DNA of 23,448 bases, taken from a virus. Its lineage: Duplodnaviria; Heunggongvirae; Uroviricota; Caudoviricetes. The stretch lies in IMG/VR virus record IMGVR_UViG_2541047941_000006; one strand, written 5' to 3'. Numbering within the stretch: position 1 is the stretch's first letter; each line of letters begins with the position of its first letter. Both the position numbers and the translations under genes were made by a program. The notes under the pieces are model-generated. The model was not told the DNA's origin. It saw only the letters and a program-made list of their open reading frames with translations, and ran no database searches. Shown in pieces: positions 1 to 21,759 of the stretch.

Positions 1-1158
1 ATGCTCACCGTTAAGCAGATTGAAGCAGCAAAGCCGAAAGAAAAACCATACCGCCTTCTCGATGGTAATGGCCTGTACCTTTATGTTCCTGTATCCGGGA
101 AAAAGGTATGGCAGCTTCGCTACAAGATTGACGGTAAGGAGAAAATCCTGACCGTCGGAAAATATCCGCTTATGACTTTGCAGGAAGCAAGGGATAAGGC
201 ATGGACTGCGAGGAAAGACATCTCGGTTGGCATCGATCCGGTAAAGGCGAAAAAGGCTTCGTCTAACAACAATTCATTTAGTGCGATTTACAAGGAATGG
301 TACGAGCACAAGAAGCAAGTCTGGTCAGTAGGCTATGCAACTGAACTTGCCAAAATGTTTGATGACGACATTTTACCCATCATCGGCGGTCTTGAGATTC
401 AGGATATTGAGCCGATGCAACTGCTGGAAGTAATCCGCAGATTTGAAGATCGCGGTGCAATGGAGCGAGCCAACAAAGCCCGCAGAAGATGCGGCGAGGT
501 TTTTCGTTACGCTATTGTCACCGGAAGGGCTAAATATAACCCGGCACCTGACCTTGCAGACGCCATGAAAGGATACCGCAAGAAGAACTTCCCGTTCCTT
601 CCAGCAGACCAGATGCCTGCATTCAACAAAGCACTGGCAACATTTTCAGGAAGTATCGTATCGCTCATTGCGACAAAAGTTTTACGTTATACAGCCCTAA
701 GAACGAAAGAGCTTCGTTCCATGCTATGGAAGAACGTCGATTTTGAAAACAGGATTATCACCATCGACGCCAGTGTGATGAAGGGACGCAAAATTCATGT
801 GGTCCCGATGTCAGACCAGGTGGTTGAACTTCTCACTACGCTAAGCTCAATCACCAAACCAGTCTCAGAGTTTGTTTTTGCCGGGCGCAACGATAAGAAG
901 AAGCCAATCTGCGAGAACGCGGTATTGCTTGTGATCAAACAAATCGGCTATGAAGGTCTGGAAAGCGGTCACGGATTCAGGCATGAATTCAGCACGATTA
1001 TGAACGAGCACGAATGGCCTGCTGACGCTATTGAAGTGCAGCTGGCACATGCCAACGGCGGATCTGTGCGCGGTATTTACAACCATGCTCAGTATCTCGA
1101 TAAGCGCAGAGAAATGATGCAGTGGTGGGCGGATTGGCTTGATGAAAAAGTGGAGTAA
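1..1158 (+). CDS. intS: Tyrosine recombinase / prophage integrase, P4-type (IntS-like, KplE1/CPS-53 family)
   Basis: 385-aa ORF starting at base 1; N-terminal KPKEKPYRLLDGNGLYLYV motif typical of P4-family integrases and a C-terminal catalytic region (HGFRHEF ... RGIYNH, the catalytic Tyr lying in the last motif). Recalled as matching E. coli IntS; paired with a TorI-like excisionase and tRNA-derived att core at the other end of the element. Confidence 0.85.
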   Translation: MLTVKQIEAAKPKEKPYRLLDGNGLYLYVPVSGKKVWQLRYKIDGKEKILTVGKYPLMTLQEARDKAWTARKDISVGIDPVKAKKASSNNNSFSAIYKEWYEHKKQVWSVGYATELAKMFDDDILPIIGGLEIQDIEPMQLLEVIRRFEDRGAMERANKARRRCGEVFRYAIVTGRAKYNPAPDLADAMKGYRKKNFPFLPADQMPAFNKALATFSGSIVSLIATKVLRYTALRTKELRSMLWKNVDFENRIITIDASVMKGRKIHVVPMSDQVVELLTTLSSITKPVSEFVFAGRNDKKKPICENAVLLVIKQIGYEGLESGHGFRHEFSTIMNEHEWPADAIEVQLAHANGGSVRGIYNHAQYLDKRREMMQWWADWLDEKVE

Positions 1159-1367
1159 TCCGGACCGTACTTCTTTATCCAGGCATAAAGGCTGTGGGTG
1201 GTGATATCGAGACGTGTTGCAACGCTGGCAACAGAATAACCGCGATCAACAACCTGTTTGACTGCTTCAGTTTTAAACTCTTCGGGATAACGCTTACCGC
1301 TCATGGGCACCTCTCTTTAAGCCATCTTAAATGACTCTGAGGTGTCTGTTAAACCCGTGGCGATTCA
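1159..1367 (-). mobile_element. IS3-family IS fragment (left end plus 5' part of orfA), truncated exactly at the intS stop codon
   Basis: Minus-strand ORF begins MSGKRYPEEFKTEAVKQVVDRGYSVASVATRLDITTHSLYAWIKKYGPD (HTH-type OrfA N-terminus) with RBS AGAGAGGTG upstream; similarity ends at about 1159, where the frame reads through the intS 3' end. The minus-strand terminus begins TGAATCG at 1367. Confidence 0.6.
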
Positions 1368-1370
1368 AAA

Positions 1371-1820
1371 CTGCGTGTTACGTTCGCCCTGGACTGTTGC
1401 GATCGTGAAGCCATAGACTGGGCCGCAAGCACGGGAGGTTACGATAAAGCGACAGTGCAGGATGTCATGTTAGGAGCGATAGAAAAACGCTTTGGCGATA
1501 AAGTACCGGAACAGTCCATCCAGTGGCTGACAGATAACGGTTCAGCGTATAGAGCGCATGAAACACGGCAGTTCGCCAGAGAGTTGAATCTGGAGCCCTG
1601 CACAACGGCAATCAGCAGTCCTCAGAGTAATGGAATGGCAGAAAGGTTCGTGAAAACGATGAAGGAAGACTACATCGCGTTCATGCCGAAACCGAATGTA
1701 AGAACGGCATTGCATAATCTTGCAGTGGCGATCGAACATTACAATGAAAACCATCCGCACAGTGCGTTGGGTTATCGCTCTCCGCGAGAATATCGACGTC
1801 AGCGGGTAACGTTAACTTAA
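1371..1820 (+). pseudogene. IS2-like (IS3 family) transposase OrfB, C-terminal DDE fragment
   Basis: In-frame translation from 1371 gives [14 protein letters not shown]...[25 protein letters not shown]...[26 protein letters not shown]...[14 protein letters not shown], the conserved C-terminal half of IS2-type OrfB. No orfA or N-terminal part is present in the same orientation; an IS2-like right terminal repeat follows to about 1852. Confidence 0.7.
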
Positions 1821-1861
1821 GATACACCCCCTGTCTGGAAATAAGGGGGCAAGAACAATGA

Positions 1862-2614
1862 TCAGATTCCCTGGTGAGTAAGAATTTTACTTTCTGAACT
1901 CCTCTGAGAGTATTGACTTGGAGAAACACCAAAATAACGTCTAAATACATAAGTAAAGTATGAGACACTGGCATAACCACAGACCTTAGCTACTTTACTA
2001 ATAGGATAACAACGAGTGCTGAGTAAATATTCAGCCATTTGCATCCTCTCATCAAGTATGATCTTACTGAATGATACCCCCTCTTCTTTCAATTTCATCT
2101 TTAGTAAACTTTCGCTGAGATATAATCTTGATGATATATCCTTAAGACGCCATGATGCAGATAAATCCGTATGAATAATCGTTTTAACTTTAGCCCCTGT
2201 GCTTTTCAAACATCCAAACAGAAATACTCCAAATTGTTTTTCAGAAGAAAATGCAGAGAGACATGTAAAAGCAATAGACTCATCAAAAATTTCTATGTAT
2301 TCAGCACAGTGATTAGCCCAACTAATTAATCCTTTAATTAAACTGAAGTCAGCAAAGTTTATTTTTAAATAAGATGGATATTCCCTACAATCAGAAATAC
2401 CCCTTAAGTTATTAGCTTTCAAATAGCGACTAATAAACTCAGCGCCAAAATCCGCCACTATCACTCTTTCAGGATATGTCAGGAAAAAATCTCTAGAGCT
2501 AGAGTCGACAAGTACAGATGAACCTCTCTCCAGAAACACACTCTCTTTTCCGAAATAAACATCAAAGGACTCCAAAATCAATATAACTGAACATGTAGTT
2601 GCCATATCATCCAC
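1862..2614 (-). CDS. AraC/XylS-family transcriptional regulator (AppY/EnvY-like), low-GC cargo
   Basis: 250-aa ORF; C-terminal double HTH signature (WRLKDISSRLYLSESLLKMKLKEEGVSFSKIILDERMQMAEYLL...KVAKVCGYASVSYFTYVFRRYFGVSPSQY); AT-rich coding and upstream region; flanked by the IS2-like fragment and IS1. Confidence 0.8.
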   Translation of the reverse strand: MDDMATTCSVILILESFDVYFGKESVFLERGSSVLVDSSSRDFFLTYPERVIVADFGAEFISRYLKANNLRGISDCREYPSYLKINFADFSLIKGLISWANHCAEYIEIFDESIAFTCLSAFSSEKQFGVFLFGCLKSTGAKVKTIIHTDLSASWRLKDISSRLYLSESLLKMKLKEEGVSFSKIILDERMQMAEYLLSTRCYPISKVAKVCGYASVSYFTYVFRRYFGVSPSQYSQRSSESKILTHQGI

Positions 2615-2826
2615 CCAATTTAACTGAAACCAGGATGAAGTATATGCATATAAAGTTCACTTTGCCAAACTTCAGTATAAAAAACCACATAAAAAATAGG
2701 GTGTGATAAAAAATACCGTAACAATAAAGCAAAGGATTATAAAATCCGTTACAGTTACAAATGATACTCAAGAAACAATTCCTTAGGAAAAACTTATTTA
2801 CAGCCAATAAGGGTAATGACTCCAAC

Positions 2827-3330
2827 TTATTGATAGTGTTTTATGTTCAGATAATGCCCGATGACTTTGTCATGCAGCTCCACCGATTTTGAGAACGACA
2901 GCGACTTCCGTCCCAGCCGTGCCAGGTGCTGCCTCAGATTCAGGTTATGCCGCTCAATTCGCTGCGTATATCGCTTGCTGATTACGTGCAGCTTTCCCTT
3001 CAGGCGGGATTCATACAGCGGCCAGCCATCCGTCATCCATATCACCACGTCAAAGGGTGACAGCAGGCTCATAAGACGCCCCAGCGTCGCCATAGTGCGT
3101 TCACCGAATACGTGCGCAACAACCGTCTTCCGGAGACTGTCATACGCGTAAAACAGCCAGCGCTGGCGCGATTTAGCCCCGACATAGCCCCACTGTTCGT
3201 CCATTTCCGCGCAGACGATGACGTCACTGCCCGGCTGTATGCGCGAGGTTACCGACTGCGGCCTGAGTTTTTTAAGTGACGTAAAATCGTGTTGAGGCCA
3301 ACGCCCATAATGCGGGCTGTTGCCCGGCAT
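2827..3330 (-). CDS. insB: IS1 InsB (expressed as InsAB' by -1 frameshift)
   Basis: 167-aa ORF overlapping the insA 3' end in the -1 frame, canonical IS1 arrangement. Confidence 0.85.
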
Positions 3331-3524
3331 CCAACGCCATTCATGGCCATATCAATGATTTTCTGGTGCGTACCGGGTTGAGAAGCGGTGTAAGTGAACT
3401 GCAGTTGCCATGTTTTACGGCAGTGAGAGCAGAGATAGCGCTGATGTCCGGCGGTGCTTTTGTCGTTACGCACCACCCCGTCAGTAGCTGAACAGGAGGG
3501 ACAGCTGATAGAAACAGAAGCCAC
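3249..3524 (-). CDS. insA: IS1 InsA
   Basis: 91-aa [46 protein letters not shown]... with zinc-finger and HTH, canonical IS1 InsA. Confidence 0.9.
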
Positions 3525-3673
3525 TGGAGCATCTCAAAAACACCATCATACACTAAATCAGTAAGTTGGCAGCATCACCGGTCGCCACCATATACGGCAG
3601 TTCTCAGGCTCAACTTTCTGAAAGGCTCGGGTGATGTAATATGCGCGTGAGATGCGCTGTGAAATTCAGATGT

Positions 3674-3729: not shown

Positions 3730-4188
3730 TTATTTCAGGCATTGCGTCCTGATGTATTCCTGCAGGTAGTTAACCTGCGCGGTTATCTTGTCGATTCCAC
3801 TTCGGAGACGGTAATAATTGAGTTCAGCATCTGCTGTAAGTCCTGGGCTTTCTCCATCGCCCATGCCGCTGGCTCCGGTCGTTGACTTTGCACAGGTGGC
3901 GGCGACTTGCAGGCGCTTACGCCCAGCAGAAACATCAGCACGGAGACTTTCGATAGTCGCGTTAGCATCAGCAAGCTCCTTTGTGTATCTTGCGTCGAGT
4001 TCTGCTACATCACGTTGACGCTTCCGCATGTCAGCGATGGTGGCGTTCGCCTTCTCCAGTTCACTGGCCTTGTTATCGCGCTGCTCTTTGTAGGCGATTG
4101 CGTTATCACGGTAATGATTAACAGCCCATGACAGGCAGACGATGATGCAGATAACCAGAGCATAAATAATCGCGGCGACTCTGCTCAC
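3730..4188 (-). CDS. Rz: Rz inner-membrane spanin (i-spanin)
   Basis: ORF with N-terminal TMD ([28 protein letters not shown]) and coiled-coil-like body, closely resembling lambda Rz. Probable GTG start at 4188 (track ORF starts at TTG 4203); overlaps the endolysin stop. Confidence 0.8.
3783..3974 (-). CDS. Rz1: Rz1 outer-membrane lipoprotein spanin (o-spanin), embedded in Rz +1 frame
   Basis: 63-aa ORF wholly inside Rz; signal peptide with lipobox LLGVSAC followed by a Pro-rich segment ([16 protein letters not shown]), classic Rz1. Confidence 0.7.
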
Positions 4189-4718
4189 TGATCTATCCCC
4201 CAACAGGCTAATGCGCTTTCCTGGTCACGACGAATAACCTGTCCATAGCAGTTATTTGAACGTATGCGGCAATCGCGCCCACCATCTTTTATCCACCAGC
4301 GAATCGCCTCGCATGCACCTTTACGATCACCGGCATTCAGCCGCTTATAAAACGTCGACGGGAAACACTTACCGGGGCCAATGTTATAGGGACAAAATGA
4401 CGCGATACCCGCTTTCTGTGGTTCGGTCAGTGGCACTTTAATATTGCGCTCCACCCATGCCAGCGCCTTATCCCGTTCAATGGCGTTAACCTGGTCGCAT
4501 TTTTCCTTCGACAGTTTCATACCGGGAAAAACGGGTTTTCCATCCACCACCGTGGCACCCCGACAGATGGTCCAGATGCCGGAACCATCGCGGTATGCCG
4601 TTGTGTGGTTACCTTCTTTTTCATCCAGAAACTGGTCGAGAATATCAGGCGCAGGCGCACCGACGGCAATCAGTGCCAGAACGGCAGCCGACAGGCCGTA
4701 TCTGATTTTTGCGTTCAT
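4185..4718 (-). CDS. R: Phage endolysin (lysozyme), probable SAR type, RrrQ-like
   Basis: 177-aa ORF; weakly hydrophobic Ala/Gly-rich N-terminus ([17 protein letters not shown]) ahead of the catalytic domain; sits between the pinholin/ydfR-like genes and Rz. Confidence 0.85.
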
Positions 4719-5061
4719 GGATATTTATCAGGATTTATCGGTTTCTGAACCCTGGATATGTTTATCTGTCCCGGCCTGTTGAATCAGGCAAGGAATAGTT
4801 AAATACAATAGAGAGGATTGTTTATGGACAATAGCACCATTTCTCTACAGGAGTTGCTCGACTGCATTTCCAAGCTTCGGGATGATGTAAATGCCCTTAC
4901 TGTCGCATTTTAATATCTGGCATTCTCAATTCCCAAGGAACAAATGCAACCAACACTGGCATCGCTCCAGCTTGAATCACTCAACCCCAAATGGTCCCAG
5001 CAACAACAAAATTCTTTCAAGTGGCTGGCGGTATTACTGGAAGAAAAATATGCTGGTGAAA

Positions 5062-5406
5062 TTACCATTTCGGCGGAGTATTCAGAGAACCAGTAATTCT
5101 TCCCGGTAGCTTTCCTTTGTAGGTTATCCACACATTCTGCGCCTCTAAAATTATGGGGCGCTTTTCCGGCGACAGCTCATCCCCTTCACATAACCCGGCA
5201 GCAACATCCAGGAAGACCTGTCTGATGCTCCTTCTGGCTGCTGCCTCATAAAACTCCAGCGCGGCACCTTCAACACGGTCCAGCGAGATGTCCAGGTCAA
5301 AAATTTCACCGTCAAAGCGTTTTTTGTCCCGTAACGCTAAAGTTACCGTAACTTTATTCTCAAAATTGCGGATCCCTTTCACAATCAGTTCATAGTTTTG
5401 AGTCAT
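5062..5406 (-). CDS. YdfR-like protein of unknown function in the lysis cassette
   Basis: 114-aa ORF starting 5 nt after the holin stop with RBS GGGAGAG; same holin-ydfR-lysozyme-Rz order as the Qin prophage lysis cassette (recalled). Confidence 0.65.
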   Translation of the reverse strand: MTQNYELIVKGIRNFENKVTVTLALRDKKRFDGEIFDLDISLDRVEGAALEFYEAAARRSIRQVFLDVAAGLCEGDELSPEKRPIILEAQNVWITYKGKLPGRITGSLNTPPKW

Positions 5407-5410
5407 TGAA

Positions 5411-5626
5411 TTACTCTCCCCGTGCAGCCTTACGCTTGTCTTCTTTAATCTTGAAATAAAGGTTTGTCAGGTACGTCAGCAGGCCAAATACCAGGCTACC
5501 CAGCACTCCAATTGCCGCCCACTGTGAGGGCGTGACTTTATCTAGCAGCTGTAAAAACCAGTACCCGGCACTACCTGCTGAGGTGCCATAGGCGACACCC
5601 GTTGTTAACTTATCCATGGATTTCAT
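5411..5626 (-). CDS. S: Class II holin / pinholin (S21-like) with dual-start motif
   Basis: 71-aa [31 protein letters not shown]...[35 protein letters not shown]; two TMDs; Met1-Lys-Ser-Met4 dual start typical of pinholin/antiholin pairs. Confidence 0.9.
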
Positions 5627-5734
5627 AACCCCACCTCGCAGACAAAGCGGGTGTAAATTGAGGGAATACTACGAAACGTAACAGACTCGGAGTCAGTGAA
5701 TAACTCAGGTATTGGGTTATCAGCTAATATCGAG

Positions 5735-5770
5735 ACTCAAAAAATGGAAAAACCCGCTCGACGGCGGGTT
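5735..5770 (-). terminator. Intrinsic terminator upstream of the holin (candidate tR' of the late operon)
   Basis: On the minus strand AAACCCGCC-GUCGA-GCGGGUUU hairpin followed by UUUUUCCAUUUUUU, about 110 nt upstream of the holin start. Confidence 0.5.
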
Positions 5771-6199
5771 TAAGCTGTGTGACGAAGTAACCACTCTTAA
5801 CAGCATAACCAATTTTTTACGTACGTAAACCACTAAATGATATTTGCGAGAATGCTACCGAGTGTTCAAAACACCACCACAAATACATAAGAAAACCTCA
5901 ACAAATAACCAACAAATAATTTCCAGTGTTATTTTTAGCCGATTTAAATTGAACCTTCAAATTATAGAGCACTTATAAATAACAGCCGTTAATATAAATT
6001 GGCTAATAGATTTATTTTTATTCAGCCAAGAGCTATGAATAGGATTCGATAGAAAAAAGTTCAGATAAAAATAGAGATCTACTTCACAAATCAAACGAGA
6101 AACCAAAACTTACATCTTGAAATAATCACATTGATTAGATGAATATTTATCGCGCAGTGACATCATTTTTTAATAATAGTTCAAAAAAAAGGGCTCACG

Positions 6200-7297
6200 A
6201 TGAAAAAATTAACAGTGGCAATTTCTGCTGTAGCTGCATCAGTACTGATGGCGATGTCTGCTCAGGCAGCTGAAATTTATAATAAAGACAGTAACAAGCT
6301 GGATCTGTACGGGAAAGTTAATGCTAAGCACTACTTCTCCTCTAATGATGCAGATGATGGTGATACTACTTATGCCCGTCTTGGCTTCAAAGGTGAAACC
6401 CAAATCAACGATCAACTGACTGGTTTCGGTCAGTGGGAATATGAATTCAAAGGCAACCGCGCTGAATCTCAAGGTTCCTCCAAAGACAAAACCCGTCTTG
6501 CATTTGCAGGCCTGAAATTCGGTGACTACGGCTCAATCGATTACGGCCGTAACTACGGTGTAGCATACGACATCGGTGCGTGGACTGACGTTCTGCCAGA
6601 ATTCGGTGGCGATACCTGGACCCAAACAGATGTGTTCATGACTGGTCGCACCACTGGTGTTGCAACCTATCGTAACAACGACTTCTTTGGTCTGGTTGAT
6701 GGTCTGAACTTTGCTGCTCAGTACCAAGGCAAAAACGATCGTAGCGATTTCGATAACTACACTGAAGGTAACGGTGATGGCTTCGGTTTCTCTGCTACCT
6801 ATGAATACGAAGGATTCGGTATCGGTGCAACTTATGCGAAATCTGATCGTACCGACACTCAAGTTAATGCAGGGAAAGTTCTTCCTGAAGTATTTGCTTC
6901 CGGTAAAAATGCAGAAGTTTGGGCCGCAGGTCTGAAATATGATGCTAACAACATTTACCTGGCCACTACCTATTCTGAAACCCAGAATATGACTGTATTT
7001 GCTGATCACTTCGTTGCTAATAAAGCCCAAAACTTCGAAGCTGTTGCACAATATCAGTTCGATTTCGGTCTGCGTCCGTCCGTTGCTTACCTGCAATCTA
7101 AAGGTAAGGATCTTGGAGTATGGGGCGATCAGGACTTAGTCAAATATGTTGATGTAGGTGCAACCTATTACTTCAACAAAAATATGTCTACTTTCGTTGA
7201 TTACAAAATCAACCTGCTTGACAAAAATGACTTCACTAAAGCACTCGGTGTAAGCACTGATGACATCGTTGCTGTAGGTCTGGTTTACCAGTTCTAA
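6200..7297 (+). CDS. nmpC: Outer-membrane general porin, prophage-encoded NmpC/Lc/OmpD type (intact)
   Basis: 365-aa ORF with signal peptide ([30 protein letters not shown]), porin motifs ([31 protein letters not shown]) and C-terminal VGLVYQF; lies between Q and the lysis genes on the opposite strand, as nmpC does in DLP12. Confidence 0.85.
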
Positions 7298-7433
7298 TCT
7301 GATTACGAAAAAGATATGTTGCGGGAGGCGTTGCCTCCCCAACATATAAGTGGCTCCCTCAAGCCACTTCCTTTAGAAGCACAACCTTGCTTCTAACTAT
7401 ATAAACCTTCTGTTATATATTACCCTTTATTTT

Positions 7434-7460
7434 TGGGGGCGTCTCAACGCCCCATTTTTA
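7434..7460 (+). terminator. Putative intrinsic terminator in the nmpC-Q intergenic hairpin cluster
   Basis: GGGGGCG-tctcaa-CGCCCC hairpin followed by ATTTTTAATAATTTTT; two further hairpins at about 7325-7341 and 7350-7371. Confidence 0.4.
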
Positions 7461-7486
7461 ATAATTTTTAGTAAACAATTGGCATA

Positions 7487-7870
7487 TTAATTAGAGTTAT
7501 TAACAACGATATCCATCTCTAACCGGATATCTAATGCCATTAACATCCCTTCAATTATGCCCTCAGCCTTCTGTAACCTTTTCCCGATATAACCATCAGA
7601 GCAGCGATGCTTACCTGCCAGTGACATGAATGTCATACCGACTACATAATAATCTACTAATAAATCGTGCAAATCGCTGTTGTTCTTTTTCAGACGGGCC
7701 ATGCACCCGCAAATGATCATCGCGTCATCGTCACAACATTGCGGGCGAGATTTTACTTTTGAAGTAATTAATCCCTTAAAACCGGCGGCAATGGACGACC
7801 AGGTCACATCTTCATGATTATTAGCCGCCCACGCTCCCCAACGCTCAAGAACCATCTGAATATCACGCAT
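7487..7870 (-). CDS. quuD: Late-gene antitermination protein Q (Q82/QuuD type)
   Basis: 127 aa from ATG 7870 (RBS GGAG 8 nt upstream; track ORF starts at an upstream TTG): [24 protein letters not shown]...[20 protein letters not shown]...; positioned upstream of the lysis cassette. Confidence 0.8.
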
Positions 7871-7955
7871 CAACTTACTCCACAAAAATCAGACCAGAAC
7901 GCCAATTACAAGCAAAAATCAACAAAACAGTATTAGTTGATTGTTATCTCTGACT

Positions 7956-8078: not shown

Positions 8079-8092
8079 ATAAAACTCAAACA

Positions 8093-13213: not shown

Positions 13214-13242
13214 TTGATGTAATAAAACCCTGGTTGTACATT
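13214..13242 (+). promoter_or_regulatory. Putative PRM promoter giving a leaderless cI transcript
   Basis: -35 TTGATG (13214-13219), 17-bp spacer, -10 TACATT (13237-13242), then 6 nt to the cI ATG at 13249; no SD sequence. Confidence 0.4.
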
Positions 13243-13248
13243 TGGTCT

Positions 13249-14006: not shown

Positions 14007-15080
14007 ATGGAGAACTTAATGGATACTTTAAAATATGAGAAATTCTCTGATTTTGATCACAATGACCCATTTTTTGACTCTTTAAAAAAAGATTATAAAG
14101 AGTTTCCTCTTTGGTTAGAAAAAAAAGCCAGAGAAGGAGAATCAGCTTATGTGCTCTATGATGACAAGCATAAAATCGAAGGTTTTATGTATCTAAAAGA
14201 AAATGATGATGCAAATGACATTAATCCAGCGCTCCCACCAGGACGTCATCTAAAGATAGGAACATTCAAATTTGAATCTAAAGGCACCCTTCGCGGACAA
14301 CGATTTCTAAAAAAAGCGTTTGACCATGCATTTTCATCAAAATCTGATGATATTTATGTTACTGTTTTCGACAAACACGTCCATCTAATAAAACTTTTCC
14401 AAACGTACGGATTTTACATTCATGGTGAAAAAGAAACACATAACGGGAAAGAGTTTGTATATGCGAGGTCTTTGCATGAGCCTTATGGTGATATTTTATT
14501 AGATTACCCTCGAATAATGACATCAAGGGCCAACAAATATTTACTGGCGATTTATCCCGAATATCACACTAGACTATTCCCTGATTCAAAACTTGTAAAT
14601 GAATCACCAGATATTGTCAAAGATATATCCCATGCTAACAGCATTCATAAAATTTACATATGTGGAATGCGTTCTGTGATGGGAATGAAAAGAGGAGATA
14701 TCATTGTCATCTATAGAACCGGAGACAAAAAAGGGCCAGCTCGCTATCGTTCTGTAGCCAGTACATTATGTGTAGTTGAGAGCGTAAAAAATATTTCTGA
14801 ATTTTTAAGCGAAGATAGTTTTGTAGACTATTGTATTCGTTTTAGCGTATTTTCTGAAGATGAACTCAGAAAAATCTATAAAGAACGTCGATACCCTTTC
14901 ATTATAAGATTCACATACAATCTGTCTTTGCCAAAGAGACCCAATCGTGCTATTTTAATAGATCATGTGGGGCTAAATGGTTCGCGTGCATTCCGATGGA
15001 GTCACTTTAAACTCACAAATGAGCAGTTCTTAAAGATCATCGAGTTAGGCAAGATAAATGAAAGTTTTATTATCCATTAA
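14007..15080 (+). CDS. Hypothetical 357-aa protein: N-terminal GNAT-like acyltransferase region fused to a C-terminal PUA-like region (candidate exclusion/defence effector)
   Basis: Long AT-rich ORF directly downstream of cI (rexA position); GNAT-like motifs by eye (GTLRGQRFLKKAFDHAF; LFQTYGFYIHGE); C-terminal segment with PUA/ASCH-like strands (LLAIYPEYHTRLF; KRGDIIVIYRTGD). More likely start is ATG 14019 (GGAG 6 nt upstream). Domain calls are unverified. Confidence 0.7.
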   Translation: MENLMDTLKYEKFSDFDHNDPFFDSLKKDYKEFPLWLEKKAREGESAYVLYDDKHKIEGFMYLKENDDANDINPALPPGRHLKIGTFKFESKGTLRGQRFLKKAFDHAFSSKSDDIYVTVFDKHVHLIKLFQTYGFYIHGEKETHNGKEFVYARSLHEPYGDILLDYPRIMTSRANKYLLAIYPEYHTRLFPDSKLVNESPDIVKDISHANSIHKIYICGMRSVMGMKRGDIIVIYRTGDKKGPARYRSVASTLCVVESVKNISEFLSEDSFVDYCIRFSVFSEDELRKIYKERRYPFIIRFTYNLSLPKRPNRAILIDHVGLNGSRAFRWSHFKLTNEQFLKIIELGKINESFIIH

Positions 15081-15435
15081 GCCTGAGTTTGCAGAAAAAA
15101 TATTGAACGGAACAAAGCGGTTCGAGTTTCGTAAAGGTATATTCAAAAATCCGCAAATTAGCACCGTTGTTATTTATGCCACGATGCCATTAGGTAAAGT
15201 TGTTGGTCAATTCCGTATTGAATCAATACTAAGTGACGAACCGGAATCTCTTTGGAAAAAGACGGAAAAACACGCAGGTATTTCTAAGCAATTTTATGAC
15301 TCATATTATTCAGGTAGAGAAAAGGCCTACGCAATAAAAATTGGTGAAGTGGAAAGATATAAAGAACCAATTCCTATCTCTGCTCTAGGGAGTAATATTA
15401 AGCCACCACAATCATATCTTTACCTACCTGCGTAA
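15058..15435 (+). CDS. ASCH-domain (PUA-like) protein, 125 aa, translationally coupled to the upstream gene
   Basis: N-terminus MKVLLSIKPEFAEKILNGTKRFEFRK matches the ASCH beta1/GxKxxExR signature; start overlaps the upstream gene by 23 nt; AT-rich. Confidence 0.7.
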   Translation: MKVLLSIKPEFAEKILNGTKRFEFRKGIFKNPQISTVVIYATMPLGKVVGQFRIESILSDEPESLWKKTEKHAGISKQFYDSYYSGREKAYAIKIGEVERYKEPIPISALGSNIKPPQSYLYLPA

Positions 15436-15439: not shown

Positions 15440-15466
15440 CCCGGCCACCGTGCCGGGTTTTCTTTT
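15440..15466 (+). terminator. Intrinsic terminator closing the cI-cassette operon
   Basis: CCCGGC-caccgt-GCCGGG hairpin followed by TTTTCTTTTG, 5 nt after the ASCH gene stop. Confidence 0.6.
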
Positions 15467-15590
15467 GTCCCCTCATCACACAAACCGTTCAAATAACCAC
15501 CACGACATCCCTTCAGTTATCGCTATGCGATGCAAGTCACAAAATAAATCCATCCTAAATACAACCAGTTATATCTAAAACAACCAGTAA

Positions 15591-15633
15591 AACAACTTTT
15601 GTTGTTGACGATAAAACAACTATAGTTTTAAAT
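15591..15633 (+). promoter_or_regulatory. OL operator / PL promoter region
   Basis: Palindrome AACAAC-TTTT-GTTGTT (15591-15606) shares the AACAAC half-site with OR; -35 TTGACG (15605-15610), 17-bp spacer, -10 TTAAAT (15628-15633); more AACAAC repeats at 15561-15620. Confidence 0.45.
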
Positions 15634-15739
15634 AAATTCATCGCAACAACACAACGATACGGCAACCACCTGATTCACCGTTGCGATGACCGCTTAGATC
15701 CGCAGCTTGAATTTCAGCAGGCTCCGGGGAGTGCGAGGG

Positions 15740-16117
15740 GTGAAGCGGACGCGTGAACGTCGGTGTGACCAGCTGAAATCAACTCAACACTTCATACCTC
15801 AGTCGCTTCAACGAGGCGGCTTAGTTATGACAACCGGCGGCCATCCACCGCCTGAATACGCGCAGAAGTCTATATATGTTCAGCAGCCCAGCTTACGGGC
15901 AGGAGTTTTTATGGTTCATCAACATTACGGAACGCAGACCGTTAATCGCGGTGCGGTCATGCCAGGAATGCTGGTCAAACACAAAGATGGTACCTGGACT
16001 GCATCAGCTAATTTACGCGGACGACTTTATCTGCATCGCGGCATTGAGCGCACTTATACCCGTGACTTGCTCGTGGAAGTTTTTCTCGACGGACGCGGCA
16101 ACGGTCTGAATCACTAA
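15740..16117 (+). CDS. Possible N-like antiterminator (arginine-rich motif), start uncertain
   Basis: ORF in the first position of the PL operon; in-frame GTG at 15740 preceded by GGGGAG gives an N-terminus MKRTRERRCDQLKS resembling the lambda N arginine-rich motif; rest is basic and low-complexity. The first in-frame ATG with a strong RBS is at 15908, which would give a 69-aa protein instead. Confidence 0.35.
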   Translation: MKRTRERRCDQLKSTQHFIPQSLQRGGLVMTTGGHPPPEYAQKSIYVQQPSLRAGVFMVHQHYGTQTVNRGAVMPGMLVKHKDGTWTASANLRGRLYLHRGIERTYTRDLLVEVFLDGRGNGLNH

Positions 16118-16192
16118 TCCCCTTTCCTGTTTTCCGAATCAGCCTGGCATTCCGCGGGCGATTTTTTCACAGCCATTTTCAGGAGTTCAGCC

Positions 16193-16489
16193 ATGAACGC
16201 TTATTACATTCAGGATCGTCTTGAGGCTCAGAGCTGGGCGCGTCACTACCAGCAGATCGCCCGTGAAGAGAAAGAGGCAGAACTGGCAGACGACATGGAA
16301 AAAGGCCTGCCCCAGCACCTGTTTGAATCGCTATGCATCGATCATTTGCAACGCCACGGGGCCAGCAAAAAAGCCATTACCCGTGCGTTTGATGACGATG
16401 TTGAGTTTCAGGAGCGCATGGCAGAACACATCCGGTACATGGTTGAAACCATTGCTCACCACCAGGTTGATATTGATTCAGAGGTATAA
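16193..16489 (+). CDS. gam: Gam (RecBCD inhibitor), GamS-length
   Basis: 98 aa [60 protein letters not shown]..., near-identical to recalled lambda Gam; RBS AGGAG. Confidence 0.9.
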
Positions 16490-16494
16490 AACGG

Positions 16495-17280
16495 ATGAGT
16501 ACAGCACTCGCAACGCTGGCAGGGAGGCTGGCTGAACGTGTCGGCATGGATTCTGTCGACCCACAGGAACTGATCACCACTCTTCGCCAGACGGCATTTA
16601 AAGGTGATGCCAGCGATGCGCAGTTCATCGCATTGTTGATCGTCGCCAACCAGTACGGCCTTAATCCGTGGACGAAAGAAATTTACGCCTTCCCTGATAA
16701 GCAGAACGGCATCGTTCCGGTGGTGGGCGTTGATGGCTGGTCCCGTATCATCAATGAAAACCAGCAGTTTGATGGCATGGACTTTGAGCAGGACAATGAA
16801 TCCTGTACATGCCGGATTTACCGCAAGGACCGTAATCATCCGATCTGCGTTACCGAATGGATGGATGAATGCCGCCGCGAACCATTCAAAACTCGCGAAG
16901 GCAGAGAAATCACGGGGCCGTGGCAGTCGCATCCCAAACGGATGTTACGGCATAAAGCCATGATTCAGTGTGCCCGTCTGGCCTTCGGATTTGCTGGTAT
17001 CTATGACAAGGATGAAGCCGAGCGCATTGTCGAAAATACTGCATACACTGCAGAACGTCAGCCAGAACGCGACATCACTCCGGTTAACGATGAAACCATG
17101 CAGGAGATTAACACTCTGCTGATCGCCCTAGATAAAACATGGGATGACGACTTATTGCCGCTCTGTTCCCAGATATTTCGCCGCGACATTCGTGCATCGT
17201 CAGAACTGACACAGGCCGAAGCAGTAAAAGCTCTTGGATTCCTGAAACAGAAAGCCGCAGAGCAGAAGGTGGCAGCATGA
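16495..17280 (+). CDS. bet: Bet (Red-beta single-strand annealing protein)
   Basis: 261 aa [66 protein letters not shown]..., near-identical to recalled lambda Bet. Confidence 0.95.
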
Positions 17281-17957
17281 CACCGGACATTATCCTGCAG
17301 CGTACCGGGATCGATGTGAGAGCTGTCGAACAGGGGGATGATGCGTGGCACAAATTACGGCTCGGCGTCATCACCGCTTCAGAAGTTCACAACGTGATAG
17401 CAAAACCCCGCTCCGGAAAGAAGTGGCCTGACATGAAAATGTCCTACTTCCACACCCTGCTTGCCGAGGTTTGCACCGGTGTGGCTCCGGAAGTTAACGC
17501 TAAAGCACTGGCCTGGGGAAAACAGTACGAGAACGACGCCAGAACCCTGTTTGAGTTCACTTCCGGCGTGAATGTTATTGAATCCCCGATCATCTATCGC
17601 GACGAAAGTATGCGCACCGCCTGCTCTCCCGATGGTTTATGCAGTGACGGCAACGGCCTTGAACTGAAATGCCCGTTTACCTCCCGGGATTTCATGAAGT
17701 TCCGGCTCGGTGGTTTCGAGGCCATAAAATCGGCTTACATGGCCCAGGTGCAGTACAGCATGTGGGTGGCACGAAAAGATGCCTGGTACTTTGCCAACTA
17801 TGACCCGCGGATGAAGCGTGAAGGCCTGCATTATGTCGTGATTGAGCAGGATGAAAAGTATATGGCGAGTTTTGACGAGATGGTGCCGGAGTTCATCGAA
17901 AAAATGGACGAGGCACTGGCTGAAATTGGTTTTGTATTTGGGGAGCAATGGCGATGA
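17277..17957 (+). CDS. exo: Exo (lambda 5'-3' exonuclease, Red-alpha)
   Basis: 226 aa [65 protein letters not shown]...; ATGA overlap with bet. Confidence 0.95.
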
Positions 17958-18136
17958 AGCATCCTCACGATAATATCCGGGTAGGCGCGATCACTTTCGT
18001 CTACTCCGTTACAAAGCGAGGCTGGGTATTTCCCGGCCTTTCTGTTACCCGAAATCCCCTGAAAGCACAGCGGCTGGCTGAGGAGATAAATAATAAACGG
18101 GGAGCTGTATGCACAAAGCATCTCCTGTTGAGTTAA
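17948..18136 (+). CDS. Lambda orf60a-like small protein
   Basis: 62 aa [62 protein letters not shown]; immediately after exo as in lambda. Confidence 0.7.
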
Positions 18137-18300
18137 GAACGAGCATTGAGATGGCACATAGCCTCGCTCAAATTGGAGTCAGGTTTGTGCCAATACCAGT
18201 AGAAACAGACGAAGAATTTCATACGTTAGCCGCATCCCTTTCACAAAAGCTGGAAATGATGGTGGCGAAAGCAGAAGCAGATGAGAGAGACCAGGTATGA
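18109..18300 (+). CDS. Lambda orf63-like small protein
   Basis: 63 aa [63 protein letters not shown]; overlaps the orf60a end as in lambda. Confidence 0.7.
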   Translation: MHKASPVELRTSIEMAHSLAQIGVRFVPIPVETDEEFHTLAASLSQKLEMMVAKAEADERDQV

Positions 18301-18310
18301 CAACCACTGA

Positions 18311-18592
18311 ATGCATTTTTCTGGCTGCGGGCTTCATATTCTGTGTGCTTATGCTTGCCGACATGGGGCTTGTTCAGTGACACCTCAGCAGGAAAACGCC
18401 CTTCGCAGCATTGCCCGTCAGGCTAATTCTGAAATCAAAAAAGCCAGACAGCAGTTTCCGGATAAAAACGTCGATGACATTTGCCGTAGCGTACTGAAGA
18501 AGCACCGCGAAACGGTAACGCTGATGGGATTCACACCGACTCATTTAAGCCTGGCAATCGGCATGTTAAACGGCGTTTTTAAGGAACGGTGA
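18311..18592 (+). CDS. Lambda orf61-like small protein (start uncertain)
   Basis: C-terminal 71 aa (VTPQQENALRSIARQANSEIKKARQQFPDKNVDDICRSVLKKHRETVTLMGFTPTHLSLAIGMLNGVFKER) look protein-like; the N-terminal 22 aa from ATG 18311 are Cys/His-rich and may be untranslated; alternative GTG start at 18377. Confidence 0.5.
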   Translation: MHFSGCGLHILCAYACRHGACSVTPQQENALRSIARQANSEIKKARQQFPDKNVDDICRSVLKKHRETVTLMGFTPTHLSLAIGMLNGVFKER

Positions 18593-18690
18593 ACATGAAA
18601 AGCAAAATCATCAGGGAGCTACAGGCTCCTTTTTTATTATTCGCATTCACCCTCAAGCGTATTAACCAACAATTCAGGGATTAATGAAAG

Positions 18691-18912
18691 ATGGCGGACA
18701 TCATTGATTCAGCATCAGAAATTGAAGAATTACAGCGCAATACAGCAATAAAAATGCGTCGTCTGAACCACCAGGCTGTATCTGCCACTTATTGTTGTGA
18801 GTGTGGCGATCCCATAGATGAGCGAAGACGCCTGGCCGTTCAGGGTTGTCGGACTTGTGCAAGTTGCCAGGAAGATCTGGAGCTTATCAGTAAACAGAGA
18901 GGTTCGAAGTGA
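18691..18912 (+). CDS. TraR/DksA-family C4 zinc-finger protein (lambda Orf73-like)
   Basis: 73 aa with a CxxC...CxxC zinc finger (CCECGDPIDERRRLAVQGCRTC) at the C-terminus and a short N-terminal helix, matching the TraR family. Confidence 0.75.
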   Translation: MADIIDSASEIEELQRNTAIKMRRLNHQAVSATYCCECGDPIDERRRLAVQGCRTCASCQEDLELISKQRGSK

Positions 18913-19160
18913 GCGTAATTCACTCTCAGGCACTGCGTGAAGCGGCAGAGCAGGCAATGCATGACAACTGGGGATTTGACGCGGACCTTTTCCATGAGCT
19001 GGTAACACCATCGATTGTGCTGACACTGCTGGATGAACGGGAAAGAAACCAGCAATACATCAAACGCCGCGACCAGGAGAACGAGGATATTGCGCTAACG
19101 GTGGGGAAACTGCGTGTTGAGCTGGAGACAGCAAAAATCAAAACTCAACGAGCAGCGTGA
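18909..19160 (+). CDS. Hypothetical protein (ea22-position), possibly interrupted by an in-frame TGA
   Basis: 83-aa ORF from GTG 18909; after the TGA at 19158-19160 the same frame stays open for 54 more protein-like codons (VEGVISDGSKRIAELEAWVEYTRAAYVRAKDKGDLIRVITSQPTGFYAYVPCN) to about 19322. Confidence 0.4.
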   Translation: MSVIHSQALREAAEQAMHDNWGFDADLFHELVTPSIVLTLLDERERNQQYIKRRDQENEDIALTVGKLRVELETAKIKTQRAA

Positions 19161-19458
19161 GTAGAAGGTGTTATCTCGGATGGAAGTAAGCGTATTGCTG
19201 AACTGGAGGCCTGGGTTGAATACACAAGAGCTGCATACGTAAGAGCAAAAGACAAGGGAGATTTGATCAGAGTTATTACCAGCCAACCAACGGGATTTTA
19301 CGCTTACGTACCATGTAATTAGGAATCCTTGAAGTGGCAGCCTAACTGCGGATACACTGAAATGGCGATTTGGTAACATGTTTCGCACAAGGCTGTTACT
19401 ACGCTTAGAGATAATCAGCCATGATTAAACGCTTTGTAAAAAGTAAAAGGAAATTACA

Positions 19459-20073
19459 ATGAAAAAATCAATACTAATTTTAGGGCTTACGTTAATTGTC
19501 TCATCTCAAATACCATCGGCAATGGCAAAAAATGAATCAAAACTATGGGTTGTTGTTGATCGAACGGAAAGACATACCTGCCCTTCAAGTAAATGTGGAG
19601 TGGCTGGGAAACTATTTTTCAGGGAAGGCGTAGATTTTCTAGAAAAAAAAGGTGAATGGGTTCGTATAACTGAGCCATATTCAGCCTCATGTGTTGGAGG
19701 GGAAAGCGAATATATTAAAGAAGGTAATAAATCCTGCACAAGAAAAAATGGAATCGTTAATGGCAAGTTTTCAGAATGGGTTAAACTTAGTGATCTTAGC
19801 AGTGAAAGGCCATCAGATCCTGCTGAAAATGCGAGCGGAGATGATACTTTAATCAAAGGATCTGATGACTACCGTATATACAAAAAAGAGTTTTCTTCGG
19901 CAGCTAGGAAGTTAATAAATGAAGGGGTCTGCACGGAAAGCGATTTTAAGGAAATCGGAGGGTGGATGGCATCAAGCAATAAGGGTGAAAACATCTATTT
20001 CACATATTGCGGAGGAATGACGTTGTCGAACAGAATATACCTAGATGTTAAAAGTGGAAAGACTTTTAGATAA
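19459..20073 (+). CDS. Secreted Cys-containing protein with SH3b-like segments (prophage moron), unknown function
   Basis: 204 aa; signal peptide MKKSILILGLTLIVSSQIPSAMA/KNE; SH3b-like pattern (KLWVVVDRTERHTCPSSKCGVAGKLFFREGVDFLEKKGEWVRIT); AT-rich; RBS AAGGAAA; followed by a terminator. Confidence 0.7.
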   Translation: MKKSILILGLTLIVSSQIPSAMAKNESKLWVVVDRTERHTCPSSKCGVAGKLFFREGVDFLEKKGEWVRITEPYSASCVGGESEYIKEGNKSCTRKNGIVNGKFSEWVKLSDLSSERPSDPAENASGDDTLIKGSDDYRIYKKEFSSAARKLINEGVCTESDFKEIGGWMASSNKGENIYFTYCGGMTLSNRIYLDVKSGKTFR

Positions 20074-20145
20074 TATGATATTACCAATGACAGTATTGAT
20101 TTAATGCCTCCATAGAATTATCTCTAGGAAGTAGGTATAAGAAAA

Positions 20146-20178
20146 GCCCGCACAATTAGCTGCTGCGGGCTTTGTGTT
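20146..20178 (+). terminator. Intrinsic terminator after the secreted-protein gene
   Basis: GCCCGCA-caattagctgc-TGCGGGC hairpin followed by TTTGTGTTATT. Confidence 0.5.
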
Positions 20179-20366
20179 ATTCGCCATATTTTATGAAGCA
20201 AATACGACACTATAGATAATTAAGCGTTGCTGGTTGTCGATTCCTCAATCACTCCTGTGGATGGCTCTCTTCTTGTATGTGCCATTGAAGGGGAATATCG
20301 CGTAAAAAGATACCGGAAGTATCCGCGCCGCCATGATTGTCTTTCTCCTGATGCAGGAAAAGCAGA

Positions 20367-20705
20367 ATGGCTAAATCAGCAACAGAGCACAAAGCCGATC
20401 AGAGAGCCAAGCAAGCATCATCCGGTATGCGTAAGCTGGAGCTTGTACTTGATGCTCAGGAAATTGAAATGCTGGAGCGTAACTGTGCCACGCGTCGCTT
20501 CAGGCGTGCGCCTTGCGAGTTTGGTGAGTACATCGCGTTACTGAGCCGCCAGGATGATGCACGTGTGCGCTGGCGTATAAAATCGATCAGCAGAAAACGT
20601 TGCGGTAAGTGCGGCGAGAGAGTTCCTGTTAATTCATGCCCGTGTAATGGTGACTCACAATGCTGGGTGACCAAAGGCTGGCACGAAACAAAATTAATGA
20701 TATAA
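20367..20705 (+). CDS. Hypothetical protein with C-terminal Cys-rich zinc-ribbon-like motif
   Basis: 112 aa; RBS AGGAAA 6 nt upstream; C-terminal CGKCGERVPVNSCPCNGDSQC; basic N-terminal region; preferred over the overlapping 20227-20544 ORF, which has no RBS and odd composition. Confidence 0.55.
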   Translation: MAKSATEHKADQRAKQASSGMRKLELVLDAQEIEMLERNCATRRFRRAPCEFGEYIALLSRQDDARVRWRIKSISRKRCGKCGERVPVNSCPCNGDSQCWVTKGWHETKLMI

Positions 20706-20733
20706 ATCTCTGTGACATGTCACGGAGGCGGCA

Positions 20734-21162
20734 ATGAAATTAGACCAGCAATATCTAAAAGATCTACTTATCGCATTCGAAAAAACTCGTGGCCCTGACA
20801 CGATGCTTAGTGAACTAGAGGATAATGGCTTTAATAGATATGACCAAGATTTTATTTTCCATATGCGATTATTATGTGACTACGAATTAATAGTCAGGGT
20901 TGATGGAAAACCTGGGTTCGGTCATATAATGTCCAAAGCGTTAGGGGAAGGTGTTGGATATAGTTGGATCGAAGTACCACTGAGGTTGACAGCAAGAGGG
21001 CATGATTTTATTGCTGACTTACGTCAAAAGGATGTCTGGCAAGCTATAAAAACAAACTTTAAGGATGAGGGAATTAGTACACTTATGAGTGTTTCAAAAT
21101 CACTAGCAAAAGGCTTTGCAAGGAAAAAGATAAAAGATATTACAGGAATAGATATTGAATAA
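20734..21162 (+). CDS. Hypothetical protein (142 aa), low-GC
   Basis: Clean ORF with protein-like composition (MKLDQQYLKDLLIAFEKTRGPDTMLSELEDNGFNRYDQDFIFHMRLLCDYELIVRVDGKPGFGH...); RBS GGAGG upstream; no family recognised with confidence. Confidence 0.6.
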   Translation: MKLDQQYLKDLLIAFEKTRGPDTMLSELEDNGFNRYDQDFIFHMRLLCDYELIVRVDGKPGFGHIMSKALGEGVGYSWIEVPLRLTARGHDFIADLRQKDVWQAIKTNFKDEGISTLMSVSKSLAKGFARKKIKDITGIDIE

Positions 21163-21245
21163 TTCTTAGCATCAAGCAACTACTGCCTTTGGTGGAAATT
21201 ATATCTGAACTCGCTACGGCGAGTTTTGTTTTATGGAGATGATAA

Positions 21246-21413
21246 ATGCACTTCCGAGTCACAGGTGAATGGAATGGAGAGCCATTCAACAGGGTTATCG
21301 AAGCAGAGAACATCAACGACTGCTATAACCACTGGATGATATGGGCGCAGATAGCGCATGCAGACGTAACCAATATTCGAATTGAAGAACTGAAAGAACA
21401 CCAATCCGCCTGA
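21246..21413 (+). CDS. Small protein (55 aa) upstream of torI (YpdJ-position)
   Basis: ATG with RBS GGAG (7-nt spacer): MHFRVTGEWNGEPFNRVIEAENINDCYNHWMIWAQIAHADVTNIRIEELKEHQSA; stop lies in the loop of a terminator hairpin. Missed by the ORF track because it is under 60 aa. Confidence 0.5.
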   Translation: MHFRVTGEWNGEPFNRVIEAENINDCYNHWMIWAQIAHADVTNIRIEELKEHQSA

Positions 21414-21428
21414 TGGCGGTTTTTTATT
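21406..21428 (+). terminator. Intrinsic terminator after the 55-aa ORF
   Basis: CCGCC-tgat-GGCGG hairpin followed by TTTTTTATT. Confidence 0.55.
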
Positions 21429-21470
21429 GCCTGATTTGCAGGTTCGATTCCCTATTCGGAGATAGCACTC

Positions 21471-21671
21471 ATGCAACACGAACTACAGCCTGATTCACTG
21501 GTTGATTTGAAATTCATCATGGCTGATACTGGCTTCGGTAAGACCTTCATCTATGACCGGATTAAGTCCGGCGACCTGCCTAAAGCCAAAGTTATCCACG
21601 GGCGAGCAAGATGGTTATATCGTGACCATTGTGAATTCAAAAATAAGCTCTTAAGCCGCGCCAATGGGTAA
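21471..21671 (+). CDS. torI: Excisionase / recombination directionality factor, AlpA-family HTH (TorI-like)
   Basis: 66 aa MQHELQPDSLVDLKFIMADTGFGKTFIYDRIKSGDLPKAKVIHGRARWLYRDHCEFKNKLLSRANG; winged-helix excisionase pattern; last gene before the att core at the end opposite the integrase, as in KplE1. Confidence 0.8.
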   Translation: MQHELQPDSLVDLKFIMADTGFGKTFIYDRIKSGDLPKAKVIHGRARWLYRDHCEFKNKLLSRANG

Positions 21672-21744
21672 AATAGCGGGTAAAATATTTCTCACATCTA
21701 AAAAACACCATTCCAATCAATCCCCTGCCGCTTCAAGTAGATGT

Positions 21745-21759
21745 CTGCAGGGGACACCA
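21745..21759. other. attR core: 15-bp copy of a tRNA-Arg (argW-like) 3' end
   Basis: CTGCAGGGGACACCA, the acceptor-stem/CCA 3' end of a tRNA, present as an isolated fragment 74 bp after torI; no full tRNA around it. Confidence 0.65.

Follow-up and report, generated by a model that had tools for sequence, protein, structure and literature searches.

Evidence for a defective lambdoid mosaic prophage at argW with a KplE1-type split integration module

The DNA analyzed here is a 23,448-nucleotide stretch from a tailed-phage record (IMG/VR IMGVR_UViG_2541047941_000006), called the window below, always at its full length. The element that it holds is very probably a defective lambdoid mosaic prophage at the tRNA gene argW, with a split integration module of the KplE1 type (integrase gene intS at one end and excisionase gene torI at the other) and with its structural genes lost to an IS1-linked deletion. 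The architecture, the site, and the mechanism have already been described, and public genomes already contain annotated lambda-like genomes with the argW module; the element is a further deletion derivative of a known kind. The window starts at the ATG of intS, and attL and argW, to the left of base 1, were read from relatives. A preliminary description made from the sequence had called the prophage whole, which was too generous, as the window contains neither the attL core, which lies upstream of base 1, nor a tRNA gene (ARAGORN).

A six-frame listing of open reading frames (ORFs) combined with hidden Markov model (HMM) searches placed a lambdoid genome with divergent early operons between intS and torI. 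On the plus strand, the order is intS, a porin gene, cI, a two-gene insert, kil, gam, bet, exo, lambda-like small accessory genes, and torI, and on the minus strand it is cro, a YdaT/cII-like gene, O, P, ren, ninB, ybcO, rusA, Q, holin, a DUF1327 gene, endolysin, and Rz/Rz1. The leftward PR operon from cro to Rz that had been proposed agreed with both the ORF map and the HMM searches; the proposed rightward PL operon stood from gam, bet, and exo to torI and failed in its N-like gene, as detailed below. Lambda-type organization was evident in the divergent cI/cro pair with operators common to OR and OL, in O and P with iterons inside O, and in nin, Q, and the holin/endolysin/Rz/Rz1 cassette. 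Cos, terminase, head, and tail genes were absent between intS and Rz, and the element is defective because this virion module is gone. Among 5,426 complete Escherichia coli genomes, no locus covered at least 80% of the whole window (megablast).

The tyrosine integrase gene intS (1-1158, plus strand; Pfam Arm-DNA-bind_3, Phage_int_M, and Phage_integrase) reads into the prophage. Its product is identical to K-12 IntS at 384 of 385 residues, the single change being I205M, and the DNA is just 96.2% identical. The excisionase gene torI (21471-21671, plus strand; PHROG excisionase) encodes a recombination directionality factor identical to K-12 TorI at all 66 residues and is the last gene before attR, with 73 bp between its stop codon and the core, the same distance as in K-12. 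The attR site (21648-21759, plus strand; 98.2% identical to K-12 attR) consists of an arm with GGGTAAAAT repeats and a 15-bp core, CTGCAGGGGACACCA, at 21745-21759; the window has a single copy of this core, which reproduces the final 15 nt of the tRNA-Arg gene argW and matches the feature annotated as pawZ in K-12. With CTGCAGGGGACACCA(T), 15 of 15 positions matched, and the arm was conserved as well, 21421-21744 being 98% identical to K-12, Sf6, and HK620 and the entire segment 21421-21759 being 98.2% identical to the right end of K-12 KplE1. Any one 15-mer would turn up by chance about 4e-5 times in 23 kb of both strands, and the core match at 21745-21759 is therefore not fortuitous. These results bore out what the preliminary description had said of the two ends, namely, an inward-reading IntS-like integrase from base 1, a TorI-like last gene before a 15-bp copy of a tRNA-Arg 3' end, and a KplE1-type split of the module.

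The partner core was found in the relatives. In STEC409, which is 99.7% identical to window positions 1 to 3579, the same 15-mer closes argW, which lies 161 bp ahead of the ATG of intS, and argW with the core likewise lies upstream of intS in K-12, P393-F10, and 2013C-3264, so that every relative examined had the expected tRNA gene and core; the concern that the 15-mer might lack a partner was not borne out in these relatives. Identity between the attL of these relatives and the attR of the window is exactly the 15-nt core. Repeats of the GTTCG type and GGGTAAAA motifs were seen in the attL of STEC409, K-12, and P393-F10. In 10 of 10 further contigs with an identical IntS protein, IntS lay directly downstream of yfdC, the gene preceding argW.

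The K-12 module has been shown to excise, in cells as well as in vitro, by means of IntS, TorI, and integration host factor (IHF); its intS promoter overlaps attL, where intS is repressed by IntS and TorI, and TorI represses intS via GTTCG, GATCG, and GTCCG boxes (PMC2951348, PMC3509656). The KplE1 attL carries five TorI sites (GTTCG, GATCG, and GTCCG) plus P' arm sites, and the attR primer site used in vitro is at the 3' end of torI. The KplE1-type module is common to numerous phages and prophages at argW (PMC2951348, PMC3509656; Panis 2010, 2012). Because attP lies between torI and intS, integration leaves intS at attL and torI at attR. From the near-identity of the proteins and sites, we infer that excision here would follow the same IntS/TorI/IHF-dependent mechanism, and the excision module is probably functional.

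Where the sister prophages retain approximately 25 kb of structural genes, the window has a complete, 768-bp IS1 (2812-3579, minus strand; inverted repeats located), and only IS3-family remnants, an AraC-family gene, and this IS1 lie between intS and Rz. The IS1 flanks, GCCAATAAG on the left and GGTCGCCAC on the right, show no 9-bp target duplication. The left junction GCCAATAAG, beside the AraC-family gene, is joined on its right to a different sequence in each of three strains: to DNA downstream of Rz in the window, to yadM in STEC409, and to a tail-fibre-assembly region in contig L019; contig L020 has the right-hand sequence of L019 after IS1 with another left flank. The joining of yadM to the STEC409 IS1 indicated an inversion. 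Together, the IS1 junctions are nested IS1-adjacent deletions plus one inversion, and about 25 kb, including cos and the terminase, head, and tail genes, was lost by IS1-adjacent rearrangement, making the element cryptic. In the window, the IS1 beside the AraC cargo would have deleted the span from the tail-fibre region to 150 bp downstream of Rz. The IS1-Rz junction was present in none of the 5,426 complete E. coli genomes and in none of the 10 argW contigs with identical IntS.

At the other end, the module boundary (21406-21451, plus strand; terminator scan and alignments) consists of a terminator, a TTGC-N6-TTGC box (21427-21439), and a 16-nt copy of the argW T-arm (21436-21451). Lambda and PSS-13, a sister prophage at the lambda attachment site (attLambda), are colinear with the window through the terminator GGCGGTTTTTT (21406-21425) and then diverge from the window, Sf6, and K-12. 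Past this point, lambda continues into the PI cII box and xis, whereas the window, Sf6, and HK620 continue into TTGCCTGATTTGC and torI; the HK620 annotation places a cII site and a promoter at the TTGC-N6-TTGC box. A second attLambda prophage, in Res13-Lact-ER02-39 (between bio and ybhC), is near-isogenic with the element, is itself defective, and carries the lambda-type xis, int, and attP. Within positions 5772-6084 of that sequence, an att core and P arm of the lambda type, with 86% identity to lambda 27528-27742, abut the final 84 bp of intS, and this intS remnant is followed by the same IS3 remnants, AraC-family gene, and IS1. This is direct evidence for a clean swap between near-isogenic phages, in which a lambda-type integration module replaced an argW-type one.

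The T-arm copy, TTGCAGGTTCGATTCC, lies just upstream of torI, comprises 16 nt of the argW T-arm, and contains the TorI-box motif GTTCG; in tRNA argW, the same 16-nt stretch runs straight into the 15-nt att core. The copy is kept in K-12, Sf6, and HK620, is duplicated in Erwinia phage Midgardsormr38, and is missing from two phages whose modules are homologous, one of Klebsiella and another of Erwinia. A second att site, as would be left by tandem integration, was considered for this copy and found no support: it lies outside the minimal in vitro attR, coincides with the cII-box promoter, and varies (duplicated or absent) among phages with homologous modules. It may be a site of TorI autoregulation or a relic of a longer att identity.

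The interior is a mosaic, as the blastn comparisons given below for each module measured; to speak of a mosaic recombinant at argW, as had been done, was correct in that respect and misleading where it implied a one-off event, since intact sisters and many argW prophages share the architecture. In principle, the element could be a composite in which only intS and torI-attR come from a KplE1-like remnant and the DNA between them comes from an unrelated lambdoid prophage that inserted or recombined there, the two never having formed one phage genome. The similarity to K-12 KplE1 is indeed limited to 1-1156 and 21421-21759, the module boundaries are sharp (approximately 1075-1158 and 21433-21439), and IS remnants adjoin intS. 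However, full-length lambda-like genomes with no internal att site are bounded by the same intS and torI at argW, the window has no second copy of the core 15-mer, and the right boundary is a usual lambdoid module junction, right after the terminator that precedes xis in lambda. Moreover, in the attLambda sister, the final 84 bp of intS still adjoin the same cargo, which places intS and cargo once in one phage genome, and this remnant therefore argues against intS and torI as leftovers of a separate element. We consider such a composite origin highly improbable.

The ends might also belong to an immobile fossil, the 15-mer, intS, and torI having been kept for host functions (e.g., inhibition of TorR) with no excision in this strain. 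Such a fossil would accord with an attL that is unseen in the window, with the IS1-mediated inversion that parts the two ends in the closest relative, and with the loss of the structural genes and the frameshift in rusA. Against it, the K-12 remnant is more decayed (10.2 kb, with no repressor), and yet these proteins and sites still excise it in vivo; between the two elements, IntS has a single changed residue and the attR arm is conserved at 98%. The 3.8% divergence of the intS DNA, set against 1 of 385 residues changed, indicates continuing purifying selection on the gene. On these grounds, an immobile fossil is improbable, if somewhat less so than the composite.

Several observations nevertheless weigh against a defective lambdoid prophage with a working split module at argW. 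The attL site is absent from the window, and the partner site was taken from relatives; in the closest of these, STEC409, IS1 is joined to yadM, and an inversion has parted the prophage ends, and similar hidden rearrangements could have occurred in the strain of the window. The rusA gene is frameshifted. In addition, no N was found, yet at least four plus-strand terminator-like hairpins follow kil (16142, 18613, 21207, and 21406; terminator scan), three of them ahead of the boundary terminator and the fourth being that terminator itself, just upstream of the putative torI promoter.

The cI-type repressor gene (13249-13938, plus strand; Pfam Peptidase_S24 and HTH_3), annotated as a 690-bp gene in relatives, encodes a helix-turn-helix domain and an S24 self-cleaving peptidase. 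Between it and the cro-like gene (12914-13144, minus strand; Pfam YdaS_toxin/P22_Cro) lies the OR region (13145-13248), with operator palindromes of the AAAACAAC...GTTGTTTT type that are common to OL; the inverted repeats I2, I3, and I15 match 13175-13215 (OR) to 15589-15631 (OL). The OL/PL segment (15560-15640, plus strand) has the operator repeats and a TTGACG -35 element. The isolated phages 4A7 and IdasGreatGrand have this same immunity region and PL leader; the OL/PL segment differs in 4A7, and its flanks are conserved. The 270-nt PL leader (15641-15910) is almost invariant across phages with differing operators.

Of the lambdoid set of N, nutL, and nutR, only a nutR-like boxA and hairpin were present, after cro: an exact boxA, CGCTCTTTAACAA, at 12889-12901 and a hairpin with a 5-bp stem and a 5-nt loop at 12856-12870. 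No nutL matching this boxA and hairpin was found within two to three mismatches. Searches of Pfam, PHROGs, and NCBIfam gave no N homologue, and ORF 15707-16117 matched Kil only. An arginine-rich, N-like ORF upstream of kil (KRTRERR) was rejected as a candidate, as a TAG at 15800 interrupts it in three of five relatives. N is not universal among lambdoid phages, HK022 being without it. A put-like RNA of the HK022 type as a substitute for N was likewise left unsupported: Rfam gave no match at the gathering score or at E values up to 1, the fold stability of the PL leader was unremarkable (z = -1.1), and local alignment to the HK022 PL/PR region was no better than that of shuffled controls.

Inserted between cI and OL/PL, the position of rexAB in lambda, is PDC-M11A/B, a candidate defense pair (14007-15435, plus strand; PADLOC, 2e-133 and 7e-52) with 35% GC and its own terminator behind it (15440-15466). 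The first gene encodes 357 amino acids (aa) with an acetyltransferase-like N terminus, and the second encodes 125 aa with an ASCH domain. The pair is missing in the sister prophages P393-F10 and PSS-13 and present in 4A7, IdasGreatGrand, and 275 of the 5,426 complete E. coli genomes. We found no experimental validation of PDC-M11 in the literature, the one listed paper giving its name a single time.

Downstream of cro on the minus strand are the YdaT/cII-like gene (12293-12832; Pfam YdaT_toxin, PHROG CII-like) and the replication genes O, P, and ren (10298-12296; Pfam Phage_lambda_P and Phage_rep_O, PHROG Ren), with the ori iterons inside O at 11743-11832 as tandem repeats of 19 to 23 bp. By blastn, which gave this and the following module identities, 10308-11743 is 95.5% identical to lambda ren, P, and the C-terminal part of O. 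On the plus strand, kil (15911-16117) and gam, bet, and exo (16193-17957) make up 15911-17957 (PHROG Kil and NCBIfam FtsZ inhibitor; Pfam Gam, RecT, and YqaJ), and 16111-19207 is 97.2% identical to lambda from kil/gam through ea22. The proposal of lambda-like O, P, ren, and Red hence survived for P, ren, and Red and extended in O to the C-terminal half only. Distal accessory genes of the left operon follow (17948-21413, plus strand), with lambda identity over 16111-19207 and 21198-21433, the latter segment being 95.3% identical to the small gene just upstream of xis in lambda. They comprise lambda orf60a/63/61-like genes, a TraR-like gene, an Ea22 fragment, a 204-aa secreted protein, a UmuD-like fragment, a regulator, a DUF2513 gene, and a lambdap35-like gene; the attLambda sister PSS-13 carries the same distal set.

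The interval from ren to ninB (9543-10307, minus strand) is a cargo slot of variable content and here has two small ORFs, one in PHROG 16870 and the other coding for a lipoprotein-like product of 82 aa in no family. The slot has no similarity to DLP12, lambda, or P393-F10 (blastn), and its contents differ among the sisters: elsewhere, it holds a SIR2-family gene (Res13) or emrE, ylcJ, and ybcK (P393-F10 and DLP12). The nin region (8090-9359, minus strand) contains a rusA pseudogene, ybcO, and ninB/ybcN (Pfam RusA, YbcO, and NinB). Relative to DLP12 rusA, the copy at 8090-8454 has a 1-bp deletion in an A-run, and the resulting frameshift truncates the Holliday-junction resolvase. The late antiterminator gene Q (7487-7885, minus strand; Pfam Phage_antitermQ, 2e-53) is quuD-like and 97% identical to DLP12. 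Over 7231-9542, the window is 97.1% identical to the DLP12 genes quuD, ylcG, rusA, ybcO, ninE, and ybcN, in full agreement with the DLP12-like nin and Q of the preliminary description.

Transcribed against the late operon is an intact cargo gene for a porin of the NmpC/OmpC family (6200-7297, plus strand; Pfam Porin_1, 1e-156), 97 to 98% identical to DLP12 nmpC, of which the K-12 copy is IS5-disrupted. The lysis genes, all on the minus strand, start with an essD-like holin of the phage 21 type (5411-5626; Pfam Phage_holin_2_1, 2e-35), and 5410-7239 is 97.8% identical to DLP12 from essD to nmpC. The ydfR-like DUF1327 gene (5062-5406; Pfam, 7.5e-42) lies in a segment, 5201-5638, that is 87.2% identical to Qin ydfR. 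The endolysin (4185-4718; Pfam Phage_lysozyme) is like Qin rrrQ (92.3% over 4185-4728) and has a hydrophobic N terminus, which suggests the signal-anchor-release (SAR) type. The Rz spanin gene (3730-4203; Pfam Phage_lysis, 2e-39), with an embedded Rz1 (3783-3974) that has a lipobox, is only about 82% identical to lambda or DLP12. The lysis region had been described as Qin-like, which fits the endolysin and ydfR and does not fit the holin, which is like DLP12 essD (98%), or Rz.

At the left end, the IS3-family remnants (1159-1861; ORF translations) comprise a minus-strand piece of orfA and a plus-strand piece coding for the integrase core, and the same DNA in STEC409 is annotated by RefSeq as partial pseudogenes. 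The adjacent AraC-family regulator gene (1862-2614, minus strand; Pfam HTH_18/HTH_AraC) is YdeO/GadX-like cargo with 36% GC; its match to the NCBIfam YdeO model (1e-41) is under the curated cutoff. Like the porin gene, this gene appears intact and host-facing, and in 2013C-3264 it adjoins the type III effector genes espJ and tccP. To the right of attR is the chromosomal flank (21760-23448, minus strand), which consists of intergenic DNA and a cscB-type sucrose permease gene (22201-23448) and is 99.1% identical to the P393-F10 flank, where the annotation gives an oligosaccharide MFS transporter and then cscK, cscA, cscR, and dsdA.

The gene content allows a behavior to be proposed. The cI-type S24 repressor would keep PL and PR off, and its cleavage during the SOS response would set off replication from the iterons by way of O and P, turn on holin, endolysin, and Rz through Q, and turn on torI as well. 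Recombination between the two 15-bp cores, carried out by TorI along with host IHF and an IntS that regulates itself, would free a circle of about 22 kb; no virions would be possible from the element. One candidate for switching on torI would be the cII-box promoter just upstream, which overlaps the T-arm copy with its GTTCG box; that box, lying in the torI promoter region, hints at TorI autoregulation. The other candidate for its control would be the conserved 270-nt PL leader. The element has intact cI, O/P with iterons, and Q, a lysis cassette of the pinholin type, and a nearly wild-type IntS/TorI/attR. That this capsid-less element might act as an SOS-inducible replicon that excises, replicates, and lyses its host, with the excisionase switched on without an N-type antiterminator, is a speculative and rather unlikely proposal.

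The finding itself matters little. It illustrates two textbook processes, the swapping of argW-type (torI, attP, intS) and lambda-type (xis, int, attP) modules at the terminator preceding xis and the stepwise decay of prophages via IS1-adjacent deletions, and it allows the locus to be labeled confidently in annotation as a defective lambdoid argW prophage. The leads that it offers are the PDC-M11 pair next to cI and the early left operon without N.

Identical 385-aa IntS proteins were also seen downstream of yfdC beside three kinds of prophage interior (contigs L017 to L026), with lambda-like tail-fibre genes, with Mu-/P2-like baseplate genes, or with a P22-like tailspike and ant, arc, and mnt; this exact protein is listed in 2,893 blocks of the collection. 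One identical integrase protein thus serves prophages of the siphovirus, myovirus, and podovirus types at argW. The Stx2 phage VT2phi_272 (NC_028656.1) was tried as a further lambdoid IntS phage and rejected, its intS being flanking DNA. Its own integrase lies across argW from intS, and its annotated attR adjoins yfdC. The argW gene is the target of two different integrase systems, and intS matches in records labeled Stx-converting may be flanking DNA.

Among known systems, KplE1 (CPS-53) of K-12 (Panis et al. 2007, 2010, 2012) shares with the element the argW site, IntS (384/385), TorI (66/66), an attR arm at 98%, the same core, and the split layout that puts intS beside attL and torI beside attR. 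The interiors are unrelated: what is left in KplE1 is P22-like and O-antigen-modification remnants, with no repressor, whereas the element keeps a full lambdoid set of immunity, replication, Red, nin, Q, and lysis genes. The core identity extends over 15 nt in the element and 16 nt in K-12, a difference due to the chromosomal flank, which is csc here and dsdC in K-12. In the Lederbergvirus phages Sf6, HK620, CUS-3, and Kapi1, the torI-attP-intS module is 96 to 98% identical in DNA, including the boundary and the torI promoter region, and the order in Sf6 and HK620 is xis (torI), attP, int; unlike the element, these are complete, infectious podoviruses with P22-type structural and early genes.

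Lambda, PSS-13, and Res13-Lact-ER02-39 resemble the element in Red, ren, P, and the distal left-operon genes up to the terminator before xis. In lambda, however, xis and int are adjacent and cotranscribed, with attP downstream of int, whereas attP lies between the two genes in the element; lambda also has N and nutL, both of which the element is without. The phages 4A7 and IdasGreatGrand are identical or nearly identical to it in the immunity region, the PDC-M11 pair, and the kil leader. DLP12 matches it at 97 to 98% in essD, nmpC, quuD, rusA, ybcO, ninE, and ybcN, and Qin matches it at 87 to 92% in rrrQ and ydfR, but these prophages use other sites and integrases (argU and intD for DLP12; intQ for Qin); nmpC is intact in the window and IS5-interrupted in DLP12, and rusA is frameshifted in the window.

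The most complete counterparts are the prophages of P393-F10 and 2013C-3264, which differ from the element in that about 25 kb of structural genes is kept. They also have other cargo (ompT, iss, and DGQHR or espJ and tccP), and P393-F10 is without PDC-M11. In 2013C-3264, the order runs from argW, intS, tail, and head through the early genes (50 kb examined), and the IS3 remnants and AraC cargo are 99.4% identical. The intact sister of about 49 kb in P393-F10 reads argW, intS, cargo, tail, head, lysis, Q, nin, P, O, cro, cI, Red, torI, and cscB, is 95 to 99% identical over the shared modules, and has its tail fibre and terminase genes between cargo and lysis.

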